Of a stretch of DNA of 64,000 nt, positions 1,412 to 62,965 are shown in pieces. The DNA comes from Eledone cirrhosa (Eukaryota), in the NCBI GenBank assembly GCA_964016885.1, contig OZ024741.1, positions 295,182,001-295,246,000 on the forward strand. The letters run 5' to 3'. Position numbers and translations under genes: made by a program. Position 1 is the first letter of the stretch. Each line of letters begins with the position of its first letter. Below the pieces are notes generated by a model that saw only the letters and a list, made by a program, of their open reading frames with translations, was not told the origin of the DNA and did not search any database.

Positions 1412-2237
1412 GGTAGTTTAAAAATGTGATTAATCTCGTTACATTTATTTTTAACAAAAATCAACAATGAAGAAGATCTATGAACGAAAGAAATGAAATC
1501 AGATTGGTTGATTATAACAAATATTATCCATCATGAAATGTTGATAATTTAACAGTGTATAGAGGTGGTGGGGGGAGATGGAGGTGTGTATTTGTGTGTG
1601 CACATGTGTGTTTGTGTGCGACCATGTCCGTCCATCCATCCATAGCGTGTTGTGCATGCTACATCACTATGTAGTTTCAAATATTGATTTCACTTTTCCA
1701 GTTAATTATCCTCTTAATTTCCACATTATTCATCACAATAAGCCCAGTGCATTATGCATCTGTGTCGTTTTGAAACACAAAATAATATGTTGATAAAAAG
1801 AAATTAAATATATATATATAACATTAAAAGAAAGTAAACTAACTGAAGTGAATGAATTGGCTTTGGCAAAGAATGGTATTATGTGAATTTTGTTGAATAC
1901 AAAGTAATTCAGTGGGGTTTTTTTTTTAAATTTAATTTTCATCTTCTTTCTTAACATAGACACATTGATTGTCCAAAGATTGGCAGAAGAACCAATATCT
2001 GAAATTTCTTAAATTTCCGAATAATTATTCCAAGTCTGAATGTCTATCTCTATATTTATTTATTCATTATTTTGTTAGTTTTCCTGGCAATTTGATCCAG
2101 TTACCAATAATTATCTTCCTGCTCTACATTTTGTTTGTTTGTGTATCTTTTTTTATTTTTATATATCATTTAATGATTGTATTTGTAAAGCTTTAGTTGT
2201 CTGTATATATATATACATACATAAATACATACATGAC

Positions 2238-2279
2238 ATATATATATATGTGTGTGTGTCTGTCTGTCTGTCTATGTGC

Positions 2280-2347
<68 letters not shown>

Positions 2348-2455
2348 TAGACAGACAGACAGACACACACATATATTATATATATATATATATATGCACA
2401 TAGACAGACAGACAGACACACACACATATTATATATATATATATATATATATATA
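2238..2455. repeat. Compound (TA)n/(GTCT)n microsatellite with fold-back duplication
   Basis: TGTGTGTCTGTCTGTCTGTCTATGTGCA before the TA tract recurs as its reverse complement twice after it. Confidence 0.85.
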
Positions 2456-3269
2456 ATATGGTAGCGTGGAAGATGGACGTTAAACGATGATGATAATGAT
2501 ATTGATATATATACACATCATGTATGTATCTATCTATTAATATATCTATATGTGTGTGTGTATTGGATATTTTTGTACATTTCTTTTCTTGTGAGATTTA
2601 CCAAAATAACTTTGCAAAAATATCCTGGTGTGGTTCACAACTCCAATCATTTCTCCTATTCTCACATTGCCAGCCAGTACAATAATATACCAAGATTGGA
2701 ATCATTTTTTTTTTTTTTTTTACTTTTTCTCCTTTGTGATTAGTAATGTCCAGATATCTCTTCTCTTGTGCATCTTATGTATTTTGTGTCTTTCTCCCAA
2801 AGTACCGATACCCAAAGGTGTCAACAGAGAGAGAGAGAGAAACAGTCACTCTCATACACCTGGCTCAATTATATACAAAAACACACTGTTAATTGTATTA
2901 TCTTCATTCAACTTAATATCATCATCATAATAATAATAACAATTTCTTTCACTGGCAATAATATCCCAAGACATTGGGAACAACAGACAAAACCAACAGA
3001 GTGGTGATATACGTTGAGTAAAGGAAAGGGAAATCTATAAAGTAGGTATTACACTTGAAGTAATTGTAATAAATAGTCATGATATCAATACAAAACTATA
3101 ACAAATGTGAACTAGAAACAGTTCCCCAATAGGGAGCATTGTGTTTTAGAGTAATTCCAGGAAAAAAAAACTCCACCACAAAACTCTGGGTTACTCTGTT
3201 GTCTCACAGGCATTCAAAGGGCACTCTTCCAGTTTCTTTCCTTCTGCTTAGCAAAGCATAGTCAGAAGC

Positions 3270-3400
3270 CTTGTTAATCTCACCATGCTAACCCATCTTT
3301 ATAAAGCCTGTTAGAAGGTAGCATCTTCCTCATTACTCTCATCTTCCTCCTCATGATGAGGGCTTAGCCAGAGAAGGAGATTCCTGTCCTCCAACCTTTT
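3270..3400 (-). pseudogene. Possible L1/Tx1-type ORF2 C-terminal remnant
   Basis: Minus translation LIMRRKMRVMRKMLPSNRLY then, after a frameshift, RWVSMVRLTR; resembles the K.RVER...F..RW end of Tx1-like ORF2. Confidence 0.3.
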
Positions 3401-3461
3401 ATACATGCCTTACATGCTACTTCATCATAACTATCAAGCAAAGGATGGCTTGCCATGCTTC

Positions 3462-3530
3462 CCTTTTAAAGGAAGACTGCCTTGCCTCCCTTCTAAAGGA
3501 AGACTGCCTTGCCTCCCTTCTAAGAGAAGA
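3462..3530 (+). repeat. 27-bp tandem repeat, about 2.5 units
   Basis: CCCTTCTAAAGGAAGACTGCCTTGCCT repeated. Confidence 0.9.
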
Positions 3531-4559
3531 GAGCATAATGGCTTGACGATGGAAATTGTCTGAATTTGGTCATTACCATTTAACAACATCAAAATAATTC
3601 TAGTTGTCATTGGTTTGATACCACTAAAACTGAGATGGTAGTTTCAACAAATAGACTTCAAATCCTAAATTGCTCATCTATAAAAGACTGCTCTGTTGGG
3701 TACACTGAGAAAAGTGTTGTTTGTTTAAGGTTGTTGTTGAGTCTCGACAGACAAAAATTCCAATAATTATCATATTTACTGTGCAAACCATAATAATGAT
3801 AAGACAATCATTGGTATTATTAATTTGAAAAAATAAAATAACCAGAACTAGGAACTAAGGTAAAACTGGTTCATGAACCTGGCCCACTAGCAGATTCCCT
3901 ATACATAACAGTATACACACACTGGCACACACACTCACCAACACACATACACAGATACACATACACATAGTGAGACTCATGCATACATACTCATGAACAC
4001 ACAACCAACATATACACACAAGGTTAAGAATGGATTATCTGCATAGAAGATTTAGTTGTATTTCATGGCTAACTGGGTGTTAACTAAATAATAGCTCAAT
4101 AAAAGTAATTAATAAATTAATTGTATTTATCATTATGTCAGCATGGGTTAGACAGGTTGTTACAGTCAGGTTCAATCCTTATTCAGAGTTATTGTGCTCC
4201 TAAACAGCTTGCATGACTGTGTTTTACCTGTATCTCCCATTTTTAGCATAATTTCTACAGTTAGATGCCTTTACTAGCACCAACCACACGAGTGTAACGA
4301 GAGACCAGGAAGTCTGGAACAGGAACTTTGTGCATGCTTTACTTTCAATATATGAATGATTCAAGAAGACGATGAAGAAAAGAAAAGAAGTAAAATACCA
4401 TTTCAGGGGCAGTGGATTGGTAGGCATAGTAGAAATACAGATAGGATGACCGAGCAGTATTTGTTCTGGCTCTTTGCATTCTGCATTCAAATAACACTGT
4501 GATCTACCTGAGTGATAGACTTAGTCTGTTGCTTTGTTTAAGATCACCACTTGTCTCTA

Positions 4560-4795
4560 GGGTGCTTCTAGTGGCATCTACTATATTGCTAGCATTCAGG
4601 CCAGGTCTCTGGGTTAATAACACATTTCGCCCTTCCTCTCATCACTATTGAAGGCCTTCAAAAGGCTCTTGGCTTCTATCCTTCTCTCCCTGACTAAATA
4701 ATTATATATATATAATCACACATTCTTTCCTTCCTCTCATCACTCATGAAGGCCTTGAAAAGGCTCTTGGGTACTACCCATCTCTCAATGACTAT
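4560..4795 (+). mobile_element. Probable Penelope-like element 3' remnant: endonuclease C-terminus plus tandem ~70-bp repeat
   Basis: LVASTILLAFRPGLW is homologous to 13684 (LVESTLLQAFRLGLW) and 23650 (TESTLLQSFKPDL) and resembles the E.L.I...KP.L end of PLE GIY-YIG domains. It is followed by two copies of CCTTCCTCTCATCACT..TGAAGGCCTT.AAAAGGCTCTTGG. Confidence 0.4.
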
Positions 4796-5214
4796 ATGTG
4801 TGCTATTTGCTTTATTTCTGTTTACGTTTTACATACATACATAAATATATATATTAGGGTCAATATTTTTTGATTGTGAATAGATGTATAAACCAAGGTA
4901 GCATACGTGATGGAGAAATGGCAATTTATCTGAAGAGACTGCGTGAAGTGTGTGAGTGTGTGTGTGTATATATATATACATGTAAGGGTGTGATAAAGTG
5001 ATGAAGTTCATTTGATGAAAGATTGCTGAAATGAAAAGTCAGTTGTTGGAATCAAATAAATTTAAAAAAAAAACTTAACAATGTATTTGTAAGATTGTTT
5101 GATGTTTCACTTTAAATATATTACACACATAAACATAAAGTAAACTGTACACATAATTTAATCTCTTCTAGTAAAATATTTCTAAACACATGTGTGTATG
5201 TGTGTGTATATATT

Positions 5215-5450
5215 TCTCCAAAATGGCTGACTGACTACAAACGTGTTTTTGACTCAAGTTTTTTCCATTCTTTCCTTTTCTCACACTCTATCTTTCTATT
5301 TCATCTTTTATTCTTCATTCTATCTTCTGATGAAGGACTACTGTCCAAAACGTTAGGATTCTTTTCCTACTATATCAAGTGTTAAACTAATATATTTCCT
5401 CATTATACTGTGTTGTTTTCTTTGTTAGTTCTGTTTACTTTTTGCACATA
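5215..5450 (+). mobile_element. Hammerhead-bearing ~230-bp element, family H1 (PLE pseudo-LTR or retrozyme-like)
   Basis: ATCTT-CTGATGA-AGGAC-TACT-GTCC-AAAA-CGTT-AGGAT at 5322-5359 is a minimal type I hammerhead with G12 changed to A. The flanks match copies at 45715, 51140, 52175, 62742 and, more distantly, 13020. Confidence 0.7.
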
Positions 5451-6018
5451 TATATATGTGTGTGTTTGTGTGTCCATGAATGTGGGTTAAATCCATTTCT
5501 TTGGATGGATGCATGGTTATAGTTTAATTGATAGGGAGAGACCCTAGCAGAAGGAGATTCTGGGATAAGACCACTTATTAAGGAGAAAAAAAGGGCAGAA
5601 GGATTATCTCATCATTATTGTTTCTATGTCTGCCTTTCATGGTAACAAATGTTAGATGGGACATGCTGACATGAGTTGGATGTGGAGAGGGTGAAAGATG
5701 TGAGTAGTAGAGACTAAAGAAGTGGGGATTTACATAGTGATAAGAGAGGTTAGTTGGAGGGTGGGCTAAGGATTGAGCAAAGGACACAACATGTTATGAT
5801 GCTCACAGCAGCAGGTAAATTCTTCAATATGCATATTGCATGTATGTGTGTGTGTGTATATATATATATATACACACACACATATATATATTATACACAC
5901 ATATATAAATGTATGTATGAATGTTAATCAAACTTTCAAGAAGAAACAAAACTTCAATTAATTAATTTACAATTTATATAAAATCAACTTAATGCTGTTT
6001 TGTTAGGTTTTTATTTTG

Positions 6019-6138
6019 CCTTCTTCTTCTTCTTCTTCTTCTTCTTTTTCTTCTTCTTGTTTTTCTTCTTCTTCTTCCTTTTCTTCCTTTTTTTCTTTTC
6101 TTCCTTTTCTTCTTTTTTTCTTTTCTTCTTCTTCTTCC
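6019..6138. repeat. (TTC)n-rich polypyrimidine tract
   Basis: Directly visible. Confidence 0.95.
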
Positions 6139-7435
6139 AGATTTCTACAATTGTCAGCTACTTTTCTGTGTTCTGTTTCGCTGCTAATCACAAGTGAACA
6201 CCTCTTATATGCAATGCTAGCTTCTTCTACAAAGCTGAATTGCTTCAGCAAAACAGCATCGTCATCATCATCAGTGTGTATAAGAATGTCTACACAAGTT
6301 GTTGTCTTTTTGTATGAGGCAATCAGTCGGTTGTTTAAAACTGTGTGAAAGAATTAGAAAGATTTTGGATGAGAATTTCAGCAGATTTATTTCATTCCTT
6401 TAGCTGCCTTTTTCTCTTTTTCAAACTTGAAACTTGGTGATGAAAAGGAAAGTGAATCTATTGCTAATGATACTGCTGCTAAGACTTTCTGTTGCTGTAG
6501 TTACCAAAGATAGGAATAAAACTGTGAGCTGTTGTTACCATTTAAAGATATATACATGTCAACTCAGCAGGAAAAGTTGAAGTATGAATTATATGAATGC
6601 TTAAGACAGCTTACAACTGTGACATTGTAATTTCAATAGACACATGCACACATTCAGGTATATCTGTGCATGTGAACAGATGTATATATACACACACATA
6701 TGCATATACATATTTATTATATTATTGAGATTACTCTCTGTAGATGCTCTGAGTTTCACACATTCTCACATACACAAACATATATATATATATATACATA
6801 TGTGTGTGGACACATGCACACACACACACATATACAGAGAGAAATTAATACACACAATGTGTTTCTTTATATCTATAATTTATTAATTTCTATGAATATT
6901 AAAAAAGAAATCCAATTTCGTTTTCTATCCCCAAACTCTATTTAATAAAATGTATATTAAAATTAGTCATGGACACTTTATGATTCTTAAACTCATTAAT
7001 AAATATATATATTTATCTCTCACATATACACCTCCTCATTCATATACACATACTCTATCTGTCTCACCTCATCACTCTCTCTTTCTTTCCACCTGCTCAC
7101 TCACTCACTATCTCTCTTTCTCTCTCTCCTCACTCAGACGTACACACTTTCTTTCATACACATATGCACACACCCTTTGCTAATCCATTTTTCTGGTATT
7201 TGGCCTTTGGTTGTTTTAATTTTAACCGTTTATAATCTTTCTAACAATACCGTAGCTCATTAGATAATCCTTTATCTGCATATTGATCTCATGTCTGGTT
7301 AGTTAATGTGCAGTATTGTCCCAAGCTGCTGTCTCTCATTTACTGCAACCAGCAGCTGTAATCTGGTGTCTTTTGTTTATTTAATGTCAGTTTTCACTAT
7401 TGAAATAGTGCAATGTTTCATTCAGTAGTAAGAGA

Positions 7436-7525
7436 CCATTACCATCTACCAATGAGCACTAGCCATTACCATCTACCAGTGAGCACTAATCATTACCATC
7501 TACCAATGAGCATTAGTCCTCACCA
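7436..7525 (+). repeat. 27-bp tandem repeat, about 3 units
   Basis: CCATTACCATCTACCAATGAGCACTAG repeated. Confidence 0.9.
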
Positions 7526-8344
7526 TCATTCATTAGTAAGAGACAATCGCCATCTTTCATTATCATTACACTATATTAAGTTATACTTTTGAATTAATCA
7601 AATACATACTATTATCATTTTCTCCCTGATTTACGACTGTAGAGCTGGCCAGGGAAGTAGAACCTGGACTGAATGCTGCATTATCCAAAATTCAGAGTCC
7701 ACCAAGGTTGACCTCTCTTTATTCAATTCAACAAATATCAACCTGATTGACTATCCCATGGTTTTTATTCTTCTTTTTCCCCCCATTTATTCCTGGGATG
7801 GCTGTGAGAGCAGAGTCTTCAAACACTCCTTCCAGCAGGTCCTGTCATGGTGTTAATCTTAAACAACATATCCAATATTTTTCTTTGGCTGTGGCAGACA
7901 CCATAATACAATGTTTTAAATTCTCAATGGGTTGTGAATATGCCATCATCATCATCATTCCTTCTGTTGCGAGTTTTATACAATTTCTTGCCATATCATT
8001 ACCCATGACCTGGGGGCAAGAAGGGGTAAGCAGTTGTCTTCAGTCCCTTGTATAGGATGTACCTTAAAAGACCTCACCCACAGAAAGAAATGCATATTTT
8101 GATATTTTACATATATATCATTGTCATTTTAACATCTGCTTCCCCTGCGTTCATTGTTCAAAATACACATAATGACTTTGTAGCCTGTGTATATTTTTCA
8201 AAGATAATGAATAAGACCGATGCCTGCCACAAAAACTAAAGCCCTAAAAGCATTACCTTGATTAATCTACCACTAAAACACAGCATTGAGTTCTAATAAC
8301 ATTATTTGCCCCACCTTAAATAGGTGAATAAACTAGTATTAAAC

Positions 8345-8519
8345 TAGTTAGACCATTATTTAACAGAGTACTCAATACTTAGGATAGTAGAGTGTGACTA
8401 TATTAGAAAGAGTCGGGGGGGGGGGGGGCTTCCAACTGAACTCCTGCCATTTCAACAGCTAGTTCCAGTCTATAACTAACTGTTGAAATAGCAAGAGCTC
8501 ACCCGTCAGACCCCAACTC

Positions 8520-8530
<11 letters not shown>
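8345..8530. mobile_element. Fold-back element, family H2 (old copy)
   Basis: Imperfect palindrome 8399-8530 (TATATTAGAAAGAGT...ACTCTTTCTAATATA) with a left-only extension homologous to the reverse complement of 24320-24365. Confidence 0.65.
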
Positions 8531-8551
<21 letters not shown>

Positions 8552-9811
8552 GAAGTGTAGAGGTAGTAAAGGTATAATATCTAATTTAGTAATGTTAGAA
8601 GAAGCAGAAAGACGAGACAACACATCTGTGGACCAGAGGCTGGAGTGGGGTACACTGATCTGGCTTATATAAATGTTAGTATCATGATTTATGACTAAAA
8701 TTCAGATTTATATTCACAATTTACACTGAGAGTTTATATTCAGTTTTAACCTTGTAGACATTTTTCTCCACTTTAAACTGCTAGTCTCTAGTTTTTCATG
8801 AGTTATTGATCAATATTTTTCATTTCATCTTTTTTTTTATTTTATTCACTTATCTTCTTTCCTTTCTCAGTATTTTTACTGTTTCTCCTTCCCACTCTCC
8901 TTCTCTCTCTCTCAACAGAATTCTGTTTGCTTAACCCTATAACAATCAAACCAACCAGCCACTATGTATAGCTATTATAAACACACTGCTATTTGTTCAA
9001 ACAGCAGCCATACTGGGTTTTGCACACACATAACCTTTGTTATCATGTAAAAGTTCCCATTGAATTTTACATGGAATCACATTTTTCTTATTTTCATCAT
9101 CTGATCACATTGTATTTGATGCATATCTAACACTATATATCTTATGAAATCCAACAAGTTAAGGCAACACTGCTGTTGTAATTGTCCTTGTTTTCATGAT
9201 GCCAACAGAGCACAATAAGCAAACTTCTTGAGTTCTCTTAATCATCACAGTTAAACCCATTTTAGACAACTGCTTTCAGTAGTGTATGTATGCAGTCTGT
9301 ATATGAAGCTGTCTCTGATATATATTCTGTGGCCCAAGGTTTTGTATGTTTACCATTACTAATAAGTACATAAAATAATTCACTGAAATGTATCCCATCT
9401 GTTCGTAGATCATTACAGGTAGTCAATCTGAGAAACCAAGAAAAAATTGAGTGGAGAGCTCTTTTAAAAGATCTCAGGGGTATTCTAGTTACAGTTTCTT
9501 AATCCATTTGGAGGACAGTTAAATAGTTGTTGACTTTTTTTTAAATATAAAACACTTACAATATAGATTTTTTATATAAATGTGTGAAAAATGAATTTCG
9601 AAGCTACTAAAACTTTTGTTCTTTCTTGTAAACTAATTTGGAAAAAAACCTTCAAGAATTCTATGTTTATACACCCCCACCCCCACATCTCTCTCTCTCT
9701 CTATCTCTCTCTCTCTCTCTCTCTCTGTATATATATGTGTGTGTATGTATATATATATATATACATGTACATATATTTATACATGTGTGCACTTGGTGTG
9801 GCTGGGGGTGG

Positions 9812-13019: not shown

Positions 13020-13185
13020 AAACTGAGTGTTTTTTTTCTAACTTCTGATGTTCCAAACTCTCCATTTCCCAAAGAAGGACTTATGTCCGAAACGTCAAAC
13101 ATTCTTCTACTTCCTCTTAAGTGTGATACTAATAACACTTTTTGTTTTTGCATCTCTGTGTATGTCTTGTCATTTCTTGAACTAT
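13020..13185 (+). mobile_element. Diverged H1-like hammerhead element
   Basis: CCAAAGA-AGGAC-TTAT-GTCC-GAAA-CGTC at 13069-13096, then AAGTGTGATACTAAT as in H1; flanked by TA tracts. Confidence 0.55.
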
Positions 13186-14206
13186 ATATATGTGTATATG
13201 CAGGTGTTGATACAATCGATGAGTTACACAATGCACAAGCTATTTTCTGAGATATATACGCTAATTTTTATAAGTTTTCTCAATACAAATTCTCACAGGT
13301 TTTGACTAACACTTTGTGGAAAGGAGTGGCACCATCAATAAAATTAATACTAGTAATACAAAAATATCAAACCAATTCTCTATACTCCTTCCCTCTTTTA
13401 TATTAGGGACTTAATAACATGATCAGACATGACATACATGCTTACAGTGTATACAAGTGTAAGTTACACATATTTCATTGTAGAGAATACTTAATCAGCA
13501 GTTCAATTTAACACAGTGACAGTCAACTCAGTTAAAAATGAGTGTCAGTGGTGGCTGGGAGATTGAACTTGTAATGATCTCATGTGCCCTGAATTGCCTA
13601 ATACCAATGAAATGAAGATAAGCTCTTGATGAGCATCCATTCTTGGAATAGAGTTTAGCCATTAGCCCTAACATGCTTTTAGCTTAGTGGAATCTACTCT
13701 GTTACAAGCATTTAGACTGGGACTCTGGTCTGACGATATTTTCAGGGAAGTCCTAGAGCGGGTCATATACACCTCCCTCCTTCCTAAGGGTTTAACAGAA
13801 GATAATAGCAAATGTAGATTACGCAGATCAACACAGTACCTTGCATCAGGGTGCTTTTTGTGTATTTGTGTGTGTGCATATCTGCCTTGCATCAGAGTGC
13901 TGTTTGTGTGTGTATATGTATTTATTACTCATTTTTCTAAGCTGCCATTTAATCCTAGATGTTCACCCCATCTTTAACTTTTTCCAGACACTGTGTATCT
14001 AGTAATACGTTATCCAGTGACTTACTACTTTAAAATGCTAGGATAAGATTTGGGGATGTTGCATGACTTGCTATTTCTAGCAGGTGAAACAACCATAAGG
14101 AAGTTCTATTGTTAGCTCAAATCTTTGATGTTTACATACAAGGTCTCTCAAAGGTCACTATGTATTTTAGATGGAAATAAGTACACTGAAATACTATAGA
14201 ATATGA

Positions 14207-20810: not shown

Positions 20811-21203
20811 CATTTCATTTTCATTTCATTTCATTTTACGTCCGCTTTTTCCCTGCTTGCAAGGGTGGGACGGGAACTGATTCTGGCTTGATTTCTACAG
20901 CTGGATGCCCTTCCTAACACCAACCTCATTTACAGTGAGTGCTGGGTGCTTTTTTTTCTGTGGCACTTCCATGACCACTTTACAGTGTGGGCTGGGTGCT
21001 TTTTTGCCGTGGCACCTCCACAACCACTTTGCAGTTAAATGATAGGGACCCCAGTCCCTATCATCTCATTTCTACAGCTTAGTAAACTGGAGCAATGTGA
21101 AATAAAGTGTCTTGCTCAAGGAAACAACACATCACCCGGTCTGAGAATTGAACTCACAACCTTTCAATTGCAAGACCAATGCTCTTCTAACCACTAAGCC
21201 ATG
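20811..21203 (-). mobile_element. SINE family A: tRNA head, CORE-like body and RTE-B 3' end
   Basis: A box TGGCTTAGTGG, B box GAGTTCAATTC, CORE-like CCTTGAGCAAGACACTT..CCAGTTTACT.AGCTGTAGAAATG; the tail here is (AAATG)n. Confidence 0.9.
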
Positions 21204-41493: not shown

Positions 41494-44918
<3,425 letters not shown>

Positions 44919-44982
44919 AATTTTAGTACAGCATACACGAAGCTGTAGTATACGGCCAAGCTAGCGTGTATATATATATATA

Positions 44983-45028: not shown

Positions 45029-45622
45029 TCATCATCATCATCACCGTTTTACATCCGTTCTTCCACGCTAGCATGGGTTAGACGGGTTGTCTGGTTGGCT
45101 GACCTTGTCTTGCTCATATAGGAACTGATTCTGGCTTGATTTCTACAGCTGGATGCCCTTCCTAACACCAACCTCATTTACAGTGAGTGCTGGGTGCTTT
45201 TTTCCGTGGCGCCTACATGTCCACTTTACAGTGTGGGCTGGGTGCTTTTTTGCCGTGGCACCTCCACGACCACTTTGTAGTGAAAGGGTGTGGGGGAATA
45301 TTGTCTATATGCTTCAGCTTGTACCCATGGGAGGTCAGGTACTCAGTATTACTGTGTGATGCCAGAGGTAACGGTCGTGTGTCATCGCCTTTGAGAGGTG
45401 TAATTGGGTAAGGTCGGTTTTATCACCTCATCCCAGGTCTTTTTGGGTCTCCCCACTCCGTGGTCCCCATTGACTTCTAGTGCTCTGCACCTTTTTATGC
45501 AGCTGTCATCCTTCATACGCATCACATGTCCATACCAACGGAATCTCCTCTCCTGCACACACCATTTGATTCCTCTTATGCTCAGTCTCTCTCTCAATTC
45601 ATTTATGCTTTGCTATTCACGT
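45029..45622 (-). mobile_element. RTE family B 3' fragment
   Basis: RERLSIRGIKWCVQERRFRWYGHVMRM; type-2 tail. Confidence 0.9.
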
Positions 45623-45714
45623 ATGTAGCAATATGTATATATATGTATATATATGTATATATATTTCTATTTCTATATGTATATTTATATTTGTGCAAGA
45701 GATGTCAACATGGA

Positions 45715-45915
45715 TGGACCTGTTACTTTTATTAAAAGACATTGTTTCCAATTCCAACCTGCCCGTCCTCTCAATCTAAGTTATTTCTCATTCTGTCTTA
45801 TGATGACTAGCATCCTAAACGTTAAGACCCTCTCCCTGCTATATCAAGTGTTAACCTAATATATCCCTTCCATATACTGTACCGATTGTCTTGTTATTTT
45901 ATATTTACCTTTTAC
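45715..45915 (+). mobile_element. H1 hammerhead element (degenerate core)
   Basis: GTCTT-ATGATGA...TCC-TAAA-CGTT-AAGAC with perfect stem I, followed by TATATCAAGTGTTAA as in H1. Confidence 0.55.
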
Positions 45916-46993: not shown

Positions 46994-47254
46994 TTGTATA
47001 TGAATTTGTTTTGCAAGGTTTTGATATGGAATCGTGTGTCGAAACAATGTTTATCATTGATTGACCAGTGGTTAAATATACAGATATAAATATATATATA
47101 TAGTCTATCATATCTATATATATATATAGTCTATAAATTCTTTCGTTGCACATCTGCAACATCATCAGTGGTACAATTATGTTCCCTTCTATTGTATTGT
47201 AATGGCGTAGACACTCATTACAATGGCATAGAACCTCCCCCAGCATAACTATAA

Positions 47255-47325: not shown

Positions 47326-47711
47326 TCATCATTTCATCATCATTTCATTTTACGTCCGCTTTTTCCCTGCTTGCAAGGGTGGGACGGGAACTGATTCTGG
47401 CTTGATTTCTACAGCTGGATGCACTTCCTAACATCAACCTCATTTACAGTGAGTGCTGGGTGCTTTTTTGCCGTGGCACCTACACGTCCACTTTACAGTG
47501 TGGACTGGGTGCTTTTTTGCCGTGGCACCTCCACGACCACTTTGCAGTGGAATGATAGGGACCCTAGTCCTATCATCTCATTTCTACAACTGAGTAAACT
47601 GGAGCAATGTGAAATAAAGTGTCTTGCTCAAGGACACAACACATCACCCGGTCTGAGAATTGAACTCACAACCTTTCGATTGTAAGGCCAATGCTCTAAC
47701 CACTAAGCCAC
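47326..47711 (-). mobile_element. SINE family A, type-1 tail, two internal ~50-bp units
   Basis: Same structure as the 20811 copy. Confidence 0.9.
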
Positions 47712-47942: not shown

Positions 47943-49143
47943 ATAGCTGAATCTATGGTAGAACTGGAGAAGAAATTTTAAACATGGAAGCAGGGACTAG
48001 AAAGAAAGGGTCTCAAAGACTAAGATCCTCGTAAGTAGACGAGAAAACAGAACCCAGATCCCCTCAGGGAAATGGCCTTGTTCAGTATGTAGGTAGGAAC
48101 TCCATTCTCTGCCCCAAATTAAAACAATGGCTACACAAGAAATGTTGTGGGATCTCAGGAAGCTTAACTAAGAATGTAGGCTTCACATGTAGCAGCTGCG
48201 CTGGGACAGCATGCGGCAAACAGCCACCGGAAAGAAGCACCACCAAACTCTGGGAGGGCTCTGTAAAAACAGTAGACAGCTTCTGCTACTTAGGTGACTG
48301 AATTAGCAGTGGAGGTGGGTGTTCGGAAAGTACAATAATGAGGGTAAGAATGGGATGGAAGAAGTTCAGGAGCTACTGCCACTGCCAGCTGCAAAAGGCT
48401 TTTCCCTCAAAATGAAAGGCAGACTGTATGATGTGTGTATACGAACAGCAATGTTACATGGTAGTGAGACCTGGGCGCTGTCTGTAGAAAACTTGTGTAG
48501 ATTAGAAAGAAACGAAGCCTGCATGCTCCAATGGATGTGTAATAGTAATATACGCAAACGACAAAGCATAAACGAATTGAGTGAGAGACTGAGCATAAGA
48601 GGAATCAAATGCTGTGTGCAGGGAGAGGCAGTCGCATTGGTATGGACATGTGATTCATATGAAGGATGACAGCTGCATTAGAAGTCGATGGAAGCTGTGG
48701 AGTGGGCAGACCCAAGAAGACCTGCGATGAGGTAATAAAAGCCGACCTTACCCATTGCACCTCCCAAAGGTGATGACACACGACCATGACCTCTGGCGTC
48801 ATACAGAAGACCCGACCCCCCACGGGTACAATCTGAAGCTGAAGCATATAGACAATATGCCTTCACACCCTCCCACTGCAAAGTGGTCATGGAGGTGCCT
48901 TGGCAAAAAAGCACCCAGCACTCACTGTAAAGTGGACATGTAGGCGCCATGGAAAAAAAGCACCCAGCACTCACTGTAAATGTGGTTGGTGTTAGGAAGG
49001 GCATCCAGCTGTAGAAATCAAGCCAGAATCTGTTCCTGTATGAGCAAGGCAAAGTCAGCCGACCAGACACTGCCGACAACAGGACAACTCGTTTAACCCA
49101 TGCTAGCATGAAAGAACGGACGTAAAACGGTGATGATGATGAT
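47943..49143 (+). mobile_element. RTE family B, 1.2 kb, degenerate
   Basis: AESMVELEKKF, GKWPCSVC, ISSGGGCSES, LHGSETW; type-2 tail. Confidence 0.9.
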
Positions 49144-51139: not shown

Positions 51140-51141
<2 letters not shown>

Positions 51142-51355
51142 AAAATCAAACAGAAATAACAAACGAAATGACATGGTTCAATGAAGGAAAATAAATTAGT
51201 TTTACACTTGATAGAGTACGGAAAGTGTGTTAATGTTTCAAACGTTAGTCCTTCATCAGGAAATAGAATTATAGCAAGATAGAGGAAAGTGGGCAATGGC
51301 AGAAGAAAAAAAAAATCTCAAAGAAAAAACAGGTCTATTCAAATGACCATCTCTT
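51140..51355 (-). mobile_element. H1 hammerhead element
   Basis: Minus CTGATGA-AGGAC-TAAC-GTTT-GAAA-CATT at about 51232-51259. Confidence 0.65.
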
Positions 51356-51442
51356 GTATATATATATTACACAGCTGAAGTATTTTGTATGTATACAGAT
51401 ATAAATTTATCATAGGCTTCGGTTGCTTAGCACACTACTTAA

Positions 51443-52174: not shown

Positions 52175-52385
52175 TATGTGTGCAAAAAGTAAATGGAAAC
52201 AACAAAGCAAACAACACAGTGCAATGAAAAATCATATTAGTTTAACACTTGATATAGTAGGAAAAGAGTCTTTACATAGTGGCATGAGTCCTTCATCAGA
52301 AGATAGAATGAGAAATAAAAAATGAAATAGGAAGATATAGAATGAGAAGAGGAAAGAACAGAAACCATTTTTGTGTGTATTCATG
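52175..52385 (-). mobile_element. H1 hammerhead element (GAAA half decayed)
   Basis: Minus ATCTT-CTGATGA-AGGAC and CTACTATATCAAGTGTTAAACTAAT. Confidence 0.65.
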
Positions 52386-52419
52386 CAGCAATATATATAT
52401 ATATATAATTTTCACATCA

Positions 52420-60106: not shown

Positions 60107-60195
60107 CACACACACATACACACATATATATATAAATGCTAGCAGGCAAAGCAGACATTAAAACGATAATTATGATGAGGATGGTATATATATAT

Positions 60196-61935
60196 CTAAA
60201 TGAGGAGAATAAATGGGAGAAAGACAGCCTCCCCCATATCGACCCAATAGAGGGACCAGCAGTGTTAGTCGAGGGGAGTATAATAAGTAAGGCAATCAAG
60301 GATATGAAGATGGGTAAGGCGGCTGGGCCTTCGGAAATAGTTGCTGAGATGCTGAAGGCATCTGGCACGGTGGGACACACCATGGTCACCCGCATAGTTA
60401 ACCAAGTCGTACAGAATGGGGTTGTTCCGAAGGACTGGCATAGCAGGATCATCGTTAACTGTTATAAGGGTAAAGGAGACGCCCTAGATAGGAGTAACTA
60501 TAGAGGCATTAAATTAATCGACCAGGTCATGAAGGTCACGGAAAAAGTAATAGCGCAACTAATCAGAGAGAGAATTGACCTAGATGAAATGCAGTTCGGG
60601 TTTGTGTCAGGCAAAAGTACCACAGACGCTCTTTTCATTGTACTACAACTAAAGGAGAAATACCTAGCTAAAGGTAAACCCCTCTACTTAGCTTTTGTCG
60701 ACTTGGAGAAAGCCTTCGACAGAGTCCCCCGCTCCATTATCTGGTGGGCTCTTAGAAAACTAGGCGTTGACGAATGGCTTGTGAGGGCTATACAAGCCAT
60801 GTATAAAGAAACAGTCAGCAAGGTTAGAATTAACAACGAATATAGTGAAGAGTTTAGCGTAAAAGTTGGCGTCCATCAGGGCTCTGTTCTCAGCCCCCTA
60901 CTATTTATTATTGCCCTTCAGGCTATAACAGAGGAGTTCAAGACCGGCTGCCCATGGGAACTCCTATACGCAGACGACCTGACACTAATAGCGGAATCAA
61001 TGGCCGAGCTAGAGAAGAAATTCCAAACATGGAAGCACGGCCTAGAGTCAAAAGGACTTAAAATTAACCTGGCTAAGACTAAAGTTCTAGTTTGTAGGAA
61101 AGAAAACAAGGCGGCGGTCCCTTCTGGGAAATGGTCGTGCTCAGTGTGTAGGAAAGGCGTAGGTAGAAACTCCATTTTATGTCCTAAATGCAAAGTATGG
61201 GTGCATAAAAGATGTAGTGGGATCACAGGTAAGCTAACTAAGAACATAGATTTTACATGTGGCCGGTGTTCTGGTGCAATAAGTAGCAGCAAGTGCCCAC
61301 AAAATACTATCTCTTTCAATTGCGCAGAGGGTTCTATAGAAATAGTGGACAGCTTCCGTTACCTGGGCGATAAAATCAGCAGTGGGTGAGGGTGCTCTGA
61401 AAGTACAGTAGCTAGAGTCAGAACTGGTTGGAAAAAGTTCAGAGAGCTTATACCACTATTAGCTGCTAAAGGGTTCTCCCTAAAAATGAAAGGCAGGTTG
61501 TACGATGCCTGCATACGAACAGCAATGTTGCATGGCAGTGAGACCTGGGCATTGTGTGCAGAGGATATACGCAGACTAGAGAGGAACGAAGCTTGCATGC
61601 TCCGCTGGATGTGTAACAGTAATATACGTGAACGGCAAAGCATAAACGAACTAAGGAAAAAATTAGAAATAAGAGGGATCAGATGTTGTTTACTCGAGAG
61701 AAGGCTACGTTGGTATGGACACGTGATGCGCATAAAAGTCGATAGCTGTATAACAAAGTGCAGGGCAATAAAGATAGACGGTAGTCACGGAATAGGCAGA
61801 CCTAGAAAAACCTGGGACGAGCTGATAAACTCCGACCTCACACACTTACACCTCTCCAAGACAATGTCACTGGACCGAGACCTTTGGCGGTACTCAGTAA
61901 CAGAGAAGACCCGCCTTGCCAGTAGGCATCTCTAA
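60196..61935 (+). pseudogene. RT ORF fragment with a single in-frame TGA at 61387-61389
   Basis: ORFs 60136-61389 and 61486-61935 are in the same frame; the linker reads *GCSESTVARVRTGWKKF. Confidence 0.9.
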
Positions 61936-62741: not shown

Positions 62742-62965
62742 TTCCAAAAACGGCTGACTGAATATGCATTTTTTCTCAAAAGATTTTTTTCCGTTTTTTT
62801 CATCTTCTCACTTTCTGTCTTTCTATTTCATCTTTCATTTCTCATTCTATCTTCTGATGAAGGATTAGTGTTCAAAACATAAATACTGTTTTCCTACTAT
62901 ATCAAGCGTTAAACTAATATTGTACTGTGTTGTTTGCTTTGTTGGTTCCCTTTACTTTTTGCATA
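62742..62965 (+). mobile_element. H1 hammerhead element
   Basis: ATCTT-CTGATGA-AGGAT-TAGT-GTTC-AAAA at 62849-62877; collinear with 5215-5450. Confidence 0.7.

Follow-up and report, generated by a model that had tools for sequence, protein, structure and literature searches.

Dispersed minimal hammerhead motifs in Eledone cirrhosa are very probably decayed pseudo-LTR ends of Penelope-like retrotransposons

Minimal hammerhead ribozymes (HHRs) in the pseudo-LTRs (pLTRs) of Penelope-like elements (PLEs) represent an established class (PMC4209133, PMC6765202, PMC7229834 and bioRxiv 10.64898/2026.07.22.740005; these and all further sources are cited for the accessible parts of their text). Cervera and de la Pena (2014; PMC4209133) described minimal HHRs in pLTRs, most of them single motifs of truncated PLEs. 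The motifs reported here resemble these metazoan PLE hammerheads in the short helix I, the additional base that separates position 9 from position 10.1, the G10.1-C11.1 pair and the palindromic 15.2-16.2 segment, as well as in the presence of several consensus families per genome and in the predominance of single dispersed motifs, with a few that flank a 3-kb ORF. They differ in helix II (4 bp, compared with 6-8 bp in the examples from Schistosoma and from Drosophila) and in number (~50,000 copies, compared with 2,000-9,000 per genome, where the detection methods also differ), and the host is not among the species named in the accessible text of that study.

The Neptune clade of PLEs with a C-terminal endonuclease (Craig et al. 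2021, PMC8557442) combines an RT, a CX2-5CxxC linker, a GIY-YIG endonuclease (EN) with CCHH and a DKG motif with pLTR partial tandems, inverted copies and microsatellite targets, and all of these have counterparts in the elements described below. In Poseidon of Anolis carolinensis (PAc; Frangieh et al. 2024, PMC11167929), which likewise carries an HHR in the pLTR and inserts into AT-rich targets, the HHR is protein-assisted, and the fixed insertion end, as is also proposed here, is explained by an internal start of reverse transcription in a stem-loop downstream of the HHR. PAc differs in belonging to the Poseidon clade, in an HHR that overlaps the ORF start and in a reverse-transcription start 111-118 nt into the ORF; no ends falling at the cut site were seen in its RNA-seq data, as given in the accessible text. 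Metazoan non-LTR retrozymes (Cervera and de la Pena 2020, PMC7229834) share the type I hammerhead and the low-GC animal repeat, but are described as ORF-less tandem units of 150-450 bp with hammerheads of the canonical form, neither of which is true of the PLE family described here. Among the accessible main texts on hammerheads in octopus, cephalopods and molluscs and on Penelope or Neptune elements of Octopus, none was found to describe these motifs; the accessible main text of the O. vulgaris repeat annotation (PMC13282606) reports Penelope-like families with no mention of a hammerhead or ribozyme.

The window (i.e. the whole 64,000-nt stretch of contig OZ024741.1 that was analysed) contains all six dispersed copies listed in the initial annotation, on the strands given there, as shown by a BLAST search of positions 5100-5600 against the window and by alignment. 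Profiles built from genome copies returned exactly six window matches (88-117 bits) and none in the reversed window, and the core pattern with up to three mismatches matched four of the six copies against 0.00 expected. The six-copy alignment consists of a common block of ~150 nt and a longer, subfamily-specific 5' part, and each copy ends in a (TA)/(CA) run. Based on best alignment, the copies (designated by their initially annotated starts) were assigned to subfamilies A (45715), B (5215, 52175 and 62742), C (13020) and D (51140), with 80-89% identity to the majority sequence of their own subfamily.

All six are read as 5'-truncated pLTRs. Those of subfamily B occupy 5215..5444 (+; 201 of 226 positions identical to the B majority), 52183..52392 (-; alignment and profile) and 62745..62961 (+; core pattern and alignment). 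In the first of these, the hammerhead remnant (5323-5358, +) has lost core G12 by a CpG-type change, while the GAAA and stem II are broken in the second (~52269-52303, -) and G12, G16.2 and stem II pairs are lost from the third (62850-62885, +). The subfamily A copy at 45694..45914 (+) shares 87.8% identity over 237 nt with the pLTR of an RT-EN element (locus L110), and its remnant (~45796-45827, +) lacks C3, G12 and 4 nt of the core and stem II. The subfamily C copy at 13050..13186 (+; alignment and profile) has lost U4 and G5 from its remnant (13065-13100, +). The core letters are intact only in the subfamily D copy at 51140..51365 (-; alignment), in whose remnant (51228-51263, -) two G-U pairs weaken stem II and the helix III palindrome is broken. 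Damage was found in every copy, at core or stem positions: none of the six retains an intact motif, the core CUGANGA...GAAA is lacking in five, and all are predicted to be inactive relics.

Other repeats were observed in the same window. A seventh hammerhead-like core, belonging to another family, lies at 47141-47168 (-) in a short segment flanked by (TA)n runs; it has a 6-bp stem II without the ACGU palindrome. Its relatives are common, and this 6-bp type accounted for 8 of 12 descriptor matches in a 400-kb sample, some as inverted pairs, with none in the reversed control. Long LINE frames with endonuclease and RT pieces, which we take to be RTE-type, extend over 41950-44960 (-) and 60136-61930 (+), and the window is dotted with numerous short 3' pieces of this LINE. 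A recurrent 48-49-bp tandem unit of another dispersed repeat adjoins LINE 3' ends (e.g. 20921-21035, 45177-45283, 47443-47549 and 48874-48986).

The core proposed in the initial annotation was shown to be the genome-wide majority, being present exactly 5,454 times in the 3.0-Gb genome (2,746 plus 2,708 matches; control, 0). The search patterns behind this count and behind the 5,411 matches of family E (see below) included ACG(U), which was absent from the criteria of the other locus sets. In the majority sequences, the motif runs from UCUU through CUGAUGA, an unpaired A, a 4-bp stem II with a 4-nt loop, GAAAC GU and H17 = U to AAGA, and the minimal type I hammerhead with a palindromic ACGU helix III is seen as proposed. 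ACGU is followed by H17 = U in the majorities of A, B and D and by C in those of C and E, while N7 is free (U, A or G) in both majorities and exact matches. The two stems were present but required correction: stem I has 4 bp (UCUU/AAGA) in A and B, the proposed fifth R-Y pair being mismatched in the majorities and found, among window copies and family majorities, only in the 5215 copy, and stem II has 4 bp, with A9 and G10.1 separated by an unpaired A. As helix III lacks a loop, it could form only between two motifs, via ACGU.

The initial annotation had staked its reading on the CUGAUGA/GAAA core and on stem covariation; the core is found in the majorities, and the stems covary between subfamilies. 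Across 17 rows, 98.5% of stem II cells are paired, with an A-U to G-C change at one pair, and 63% of stem I cells are paired. Stem I is reduced to 2 bp in E and has a C-A mismatch at 2.1-1.1, next to the cut, in C; the same 2.1-1.1 pair shows a compensatory U-A/C-G change between families. The covariation score was 0.317, whereas shuffles gave 0.181 and slid structures no more than 0.18; this value for 17 hand-picked rows is not a probability, because the rows are related and were picked by core pattern.

Model-based searches and folding did not recover the motif. The Rfam hammerhead scan suggested initially gave no hammerhead in the window among 150 of 383 matches listed, all of them microsatellite noise, and intact copies matched none of the Rfam hammerhead models at E values up to 10, a result that presumably reflects a limit of these models for motifs lacking helix III. 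For a single intact copy, folding predicted two other hairpins instead, with a stem II probability of 0.04. Single-strand folding gave no support for a hammerhead monomer (z -0.27) and no unusual stability for the downstream 129 nt (z 0.38), and a PDB search returned no match. In another repeat family (L067 603, -; L068 8486, +), a type I hammerhead-like motif was noted that is closer to the canonical form, having a small helix III and a stem I of 4 bp.

The parent element was reached from the exact-core loci. In 27 of 30 such loci a (TA)/(CA) run lies at the same 3' point, whereas the 5' ends vary, and longer upstream DNA is common to three. A search with that upstream DNA returned 30 loci, seven of which have >1.4 kb of upstream sequence in common, and the upstream 10 kb encodes, in broken frames, a PLE protein with DKGG, YIDD, a C-x4-CxxC linker between RT and EN (parent protein P0001) and a GIY-YIG domain with an internal CxxC and two later histidines. 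Pfam comparison of this protein fell slightly short of the cut-offs for both RVT_1 (E 7.9e-7) and GIY-YIG (E 0.013), and the protein is 29% identical over 549 aa (E 2e-61) to a different PLE RT encoded in the same genome. The hammerhead lies ~530 nt downstream of the ORF stop; a coding role of its own frame was ruled out by this distance and by the stops that bound it.

The pLTR also recurs in front of the ORF, and the link to PLE pseudo-LTRs raised in the initial annotation is directly supported. A pLTR piece joined by a short (TA)n directly precedes the body in 18 of 20 loci that contain the body 5' end, and in 7 of the 20 same-strand hammerheads are found at both ends, 2.1-3.7 kb apart; 39 further full stretches yielded five more tandem junctions, and an inverted copy was seen at L012. 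Beyond subfamily A, same-strand PLE protein remnants were found upstream in 7/30 B loci, where those of the longer copies show ~70-74% DNA identity to A, in 2/27 D loci and in 1/28 C loci. As C has otherwise one opposite-strand match, its link to the ORF is thin. A tblastn search for PLE coding remnants inside the 64-kb window gave 0 matches, and no whole intact ORF of subfamily A was found, the longest being 687 aa among the matches listed at >=80% identity. By linker and EN motifs as set out in PMC8557442, the parent would be a Neptune-type PLE; this assignment is from motifs and not from a tree, and Nematis, which also carries a (reduced) linker, is possible, whereas the same motifs speak against Hydra, Naiad and Poseidon.

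Additional PLEs were encountered in the course of this work. A search that started from GIY-YIG gave other PLE families and not the parent, and an opposite-strand copy at L074 was treated as chance. Loci L061-L074 contain several further PLE families with a C-terminal EN and open frames of 500-1,096 aa, with other hammerhead-like motifs 400-450 nt past the stop in L064 and L073. Introns are known from PLE pLTRs. In the L110 locus (840-830, -) and in homologous A copies, a pyrimidine tract with a terminal CAG lies ~190 nt ahead of the hammerhead and looks like a candidate 3' splice site. Finally, pLTRs of different subfamilies were observed 180-1,300 nt apart (L021 / L302, L078, L163 and L176), a pattern compatible with the (TA)n tails of older copies having served repeatedly as insertion sites.

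A sister family, designated E, was found by forcing a different base at 10.3, which gave 5,411 exact matches (control, 1). Its 10.3-11.3 pair is G-C instead of A-U in 28/30 loci, and its 2.1-1.1 pair is C-G instead of U-A in 22/30, while 2.2-1.2 is A-U in 15/30 and N7 is A in 15, G in 8 and U in 7 of the 30 loci. The layout is that of subfamily A, including the C-x4-CxxC linker, with a hammerhead spacing of 4.7 kb in 4/13 loci. Family E (L292-L333, e.g. L322 1868 and 6573) appears to be the younger sister, with a 4.7-kb unit, open frames of up to ~830 aa, a stem I of only 2 bp and an AAUAAA after the hammerhead.

Comparison of the tandem junctions revealed a motif ~22 nt past the cut site that is complementary to the first body bases after the pLTR. 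In A, the helix arms AAGCGUU/AACGCUU are both present in 15/17 junctions, about half with one substitution, and the same helix occurs in one B-type junction (L115); in E, the arms UGAGCGUG/CACGCUCA were found in 4/4 junctions and in three more. The predicted helix is 7-8 bp long, with pairing probabilities of 0.98-1.0 in E and 0.58-0.77 in A, and two flanking pairs are changed on both sides between A and E, which amounts to at most two events in one lineage split. The 39 further stretches provided no new variant beyond one outer mismatch. Insertions end within the helix loop, in E ~10 nt before the 3' arm, and the helix that encloses this fixed 3' end likely frames the start of reverse transcription, a role suggested by its position. 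The PAc start lies in an AC-rich stem-loop (PMC11167929), and the loop end of family E is AC-rich too; unlike that of PAc, the helix predicted here closes a loop of ~70-80 nt that includes a short (TA)n.

Distribution of 5' ends was examined by hand for 99 distinct loci (100 of 142 matches listed), counting ends within 30 nt around the cut site that abut (TA)n in one phase. Among these listed ends, 21 fit the predicted cut and 16 a comparable TA site 15 nt upstream, which is no significant excess (21 vs 16 of 99 listed, p 0.51); the remainder fall at other T sites (16, 11, 10 and 7), early (11) or are unclear (7). In the subset of listed ends that is free of microhomology, where the element ends on T and the flank starts with T, 8 of ~15 lie at the cut among six possible sites (p about 0.001, post hoc and hand-counted), so that an excess at the predicted cut site is suggestive only. 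Most copies run through the cut site, which implies that the main template is uncut or re-ligated RNA, and the PAc data point the same way. We consider it possible, if rather doubtful, that both observations have a joint cause, in which the covarying helix frames an internal start, cDNA stops at the cut site show cleavage in vivo and read-through derives from re-ligated circles or uncut tandems; if true, this would provide evidence, on the scale of a whole genome, that PLE hammerheads are active in vivo, something that was not found for PAc.

These ends bear on the question of whether the copies might instead be a non-autonomous, SINE-like pLTR derivative of ~220 nt with defined ends, transcribed and mobilised in trans by PLE protein. 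Many A and B copies do begin within a few bases of a point ~100-110 nt before the core (for B, in a set chosen to match the whole query, the starts of many nearly coincide), long copies are far fewer than solo ones, and non-autonomous PLE derivatives such as Chlamys/MRC1 have been described (PMC8557442). However, 5' ends are spread along the element, solo copies stop at the pLTR end without the downstream arm of the predicted reverse-transcription-start helix, and long same-strand PLE remnants occur in A, B and D. We judge such a derivative improbable overall, and most plausible for subfamilies B to D. The chance that the copies are non-LTR retrozymes, i.e. short tandem hammerhead repeats yielding circular RNAs, is slight: the type I hammerhead, the low GC content and the animal host agree with it, and retrozymes have been argued to derive from pLTRs (bioRxiv 10.64898/2026.07.22.740005), yet each of 30 loci has one exact core per 3 kb with no head-to-tail 150-450-bp units, and paired hammerheads lie 2.1-4.7 kb apart and flank an ORF. 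The search for tandem copies proposed initially accordingly did not bear out a retrozyme, as it returned, for the loci analysed, no short tandem HHR repeats and only partial tandems of 2.1-3.7 kb with an RT-EN body.

The decay of inserted copies was assessed from non-CpG changes in the core, compared with the downstream flank. The rates were similar in A (6/280 vs 56/2214; 0.021/0.025, p 0.84), C (23/278 vs 185/2293; 0.083/0.081, p 0.91) and D (16/269 vs 159/2271; 0.059/0.070, p 0.61); in B the core rate was lower than that of the flank (9/290 vs 150/2390; 0.031 vs 0.063, p 0.03), a comparison that is biased because the set was chosen by likeness to a window copy. Of these sets, only A was chosen regardless of the hammerhead, and core-less loci were dropped (2 A, 1 C and 2 D). 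Between majorities, by contrast, 27-35 of 36 hammerhead positions are identical, compared with 23-42 of ~52 upstream; for A and B, 35/36 motif positions are identical, compared with 33/53 in the upstream flank. Flank-rate decay of the copies, together with motif likeness between the majorities, points to selection on transposing masters and not on inserted copies. It is barely credible that the host has exapted the dispersed copies as active ribozymes, e.g. for the cleavage of intronic RNA: the genome holds thousands of intact cores and the full descriptor is still matched by 17/28 A copies, but by only 2/29 B, 1/28 C and 8/27 D copies and none of the six in the window, decay in A, C and D proceeds at the flank rate, and solo motifs are without a dimer partner.

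Abundance was estimated from 40 evenly placed 10-kb stretches, which contained seven copies (six over 30 bits; reversed control, 0). This corresponds to ~52,000 genome-wide copies of these subfamilies (95% range 21,000-108,000), or ~1 per 57 kb (95% range 28-140 kb), and the initial figure of one per 10 kb does not hold beyond the window. With six copies in its 64 kb, compared with seven in the 400-kb sample, the window is ~6x denser than the genome sample (p 0.005, for a window that had been flagged for its density). The further suggestion of an independent, free-standing non-coding family is not upheld, as the copies are 3' pLTRs of PLEs.

The evidence is best explained, and we hold this with high confidence, by the six copies being 5'-truncated 3' pLTRs of Neptune-type PLEs, inserted into (TA)n runs and subsequently decayed; they were likely dead on arrival. 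By this account, a partial-tandem (pLTR-ORF-pLTR) locus would be transcribed, and the element protein would nick AT-rich DNA. Reverse transcription would start inside the RNA, ~90-100 nt past the predicted cut, in the loop of the 7-8-bp helix that is predicted to link the pLTR with the beginning of the following unit, and most cDNAs would halt after 100-300 nt, giving solo pLTRs such as those in the window. The hammerhead, with a 4-bp stem I, a 4-bp stem II, a bulged A, an ACGU helix III and a putative cut after GUU or GUC, would, by analogy with described PLEs, serve to trim the transcript, acting solely within the parent RNA, in dimeric form and probably helped by protein; solo copies would have no role of their own.

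The motif is real and was correctly read in its essentials; its class, the PLE pLTR minimal hammerhead, is already known, and the families described here are a further member. For annotation of this genome, tens of thousands of apparent ribozymes are to be regarded as decayed retrotransposon ends and not as a new RNA family. With many young copies, several subfamilies distinguished by compensatory changes, and 5' ends that can be read as a record, these elements bear on the in vivo role of PLE hammerheads. The predicted insertion-end helix offers a concrete hypothesis for the start of reverse transcription in the Neptune clade, and the 5'-end record bears on in vivo cutting and on the circular-template model.
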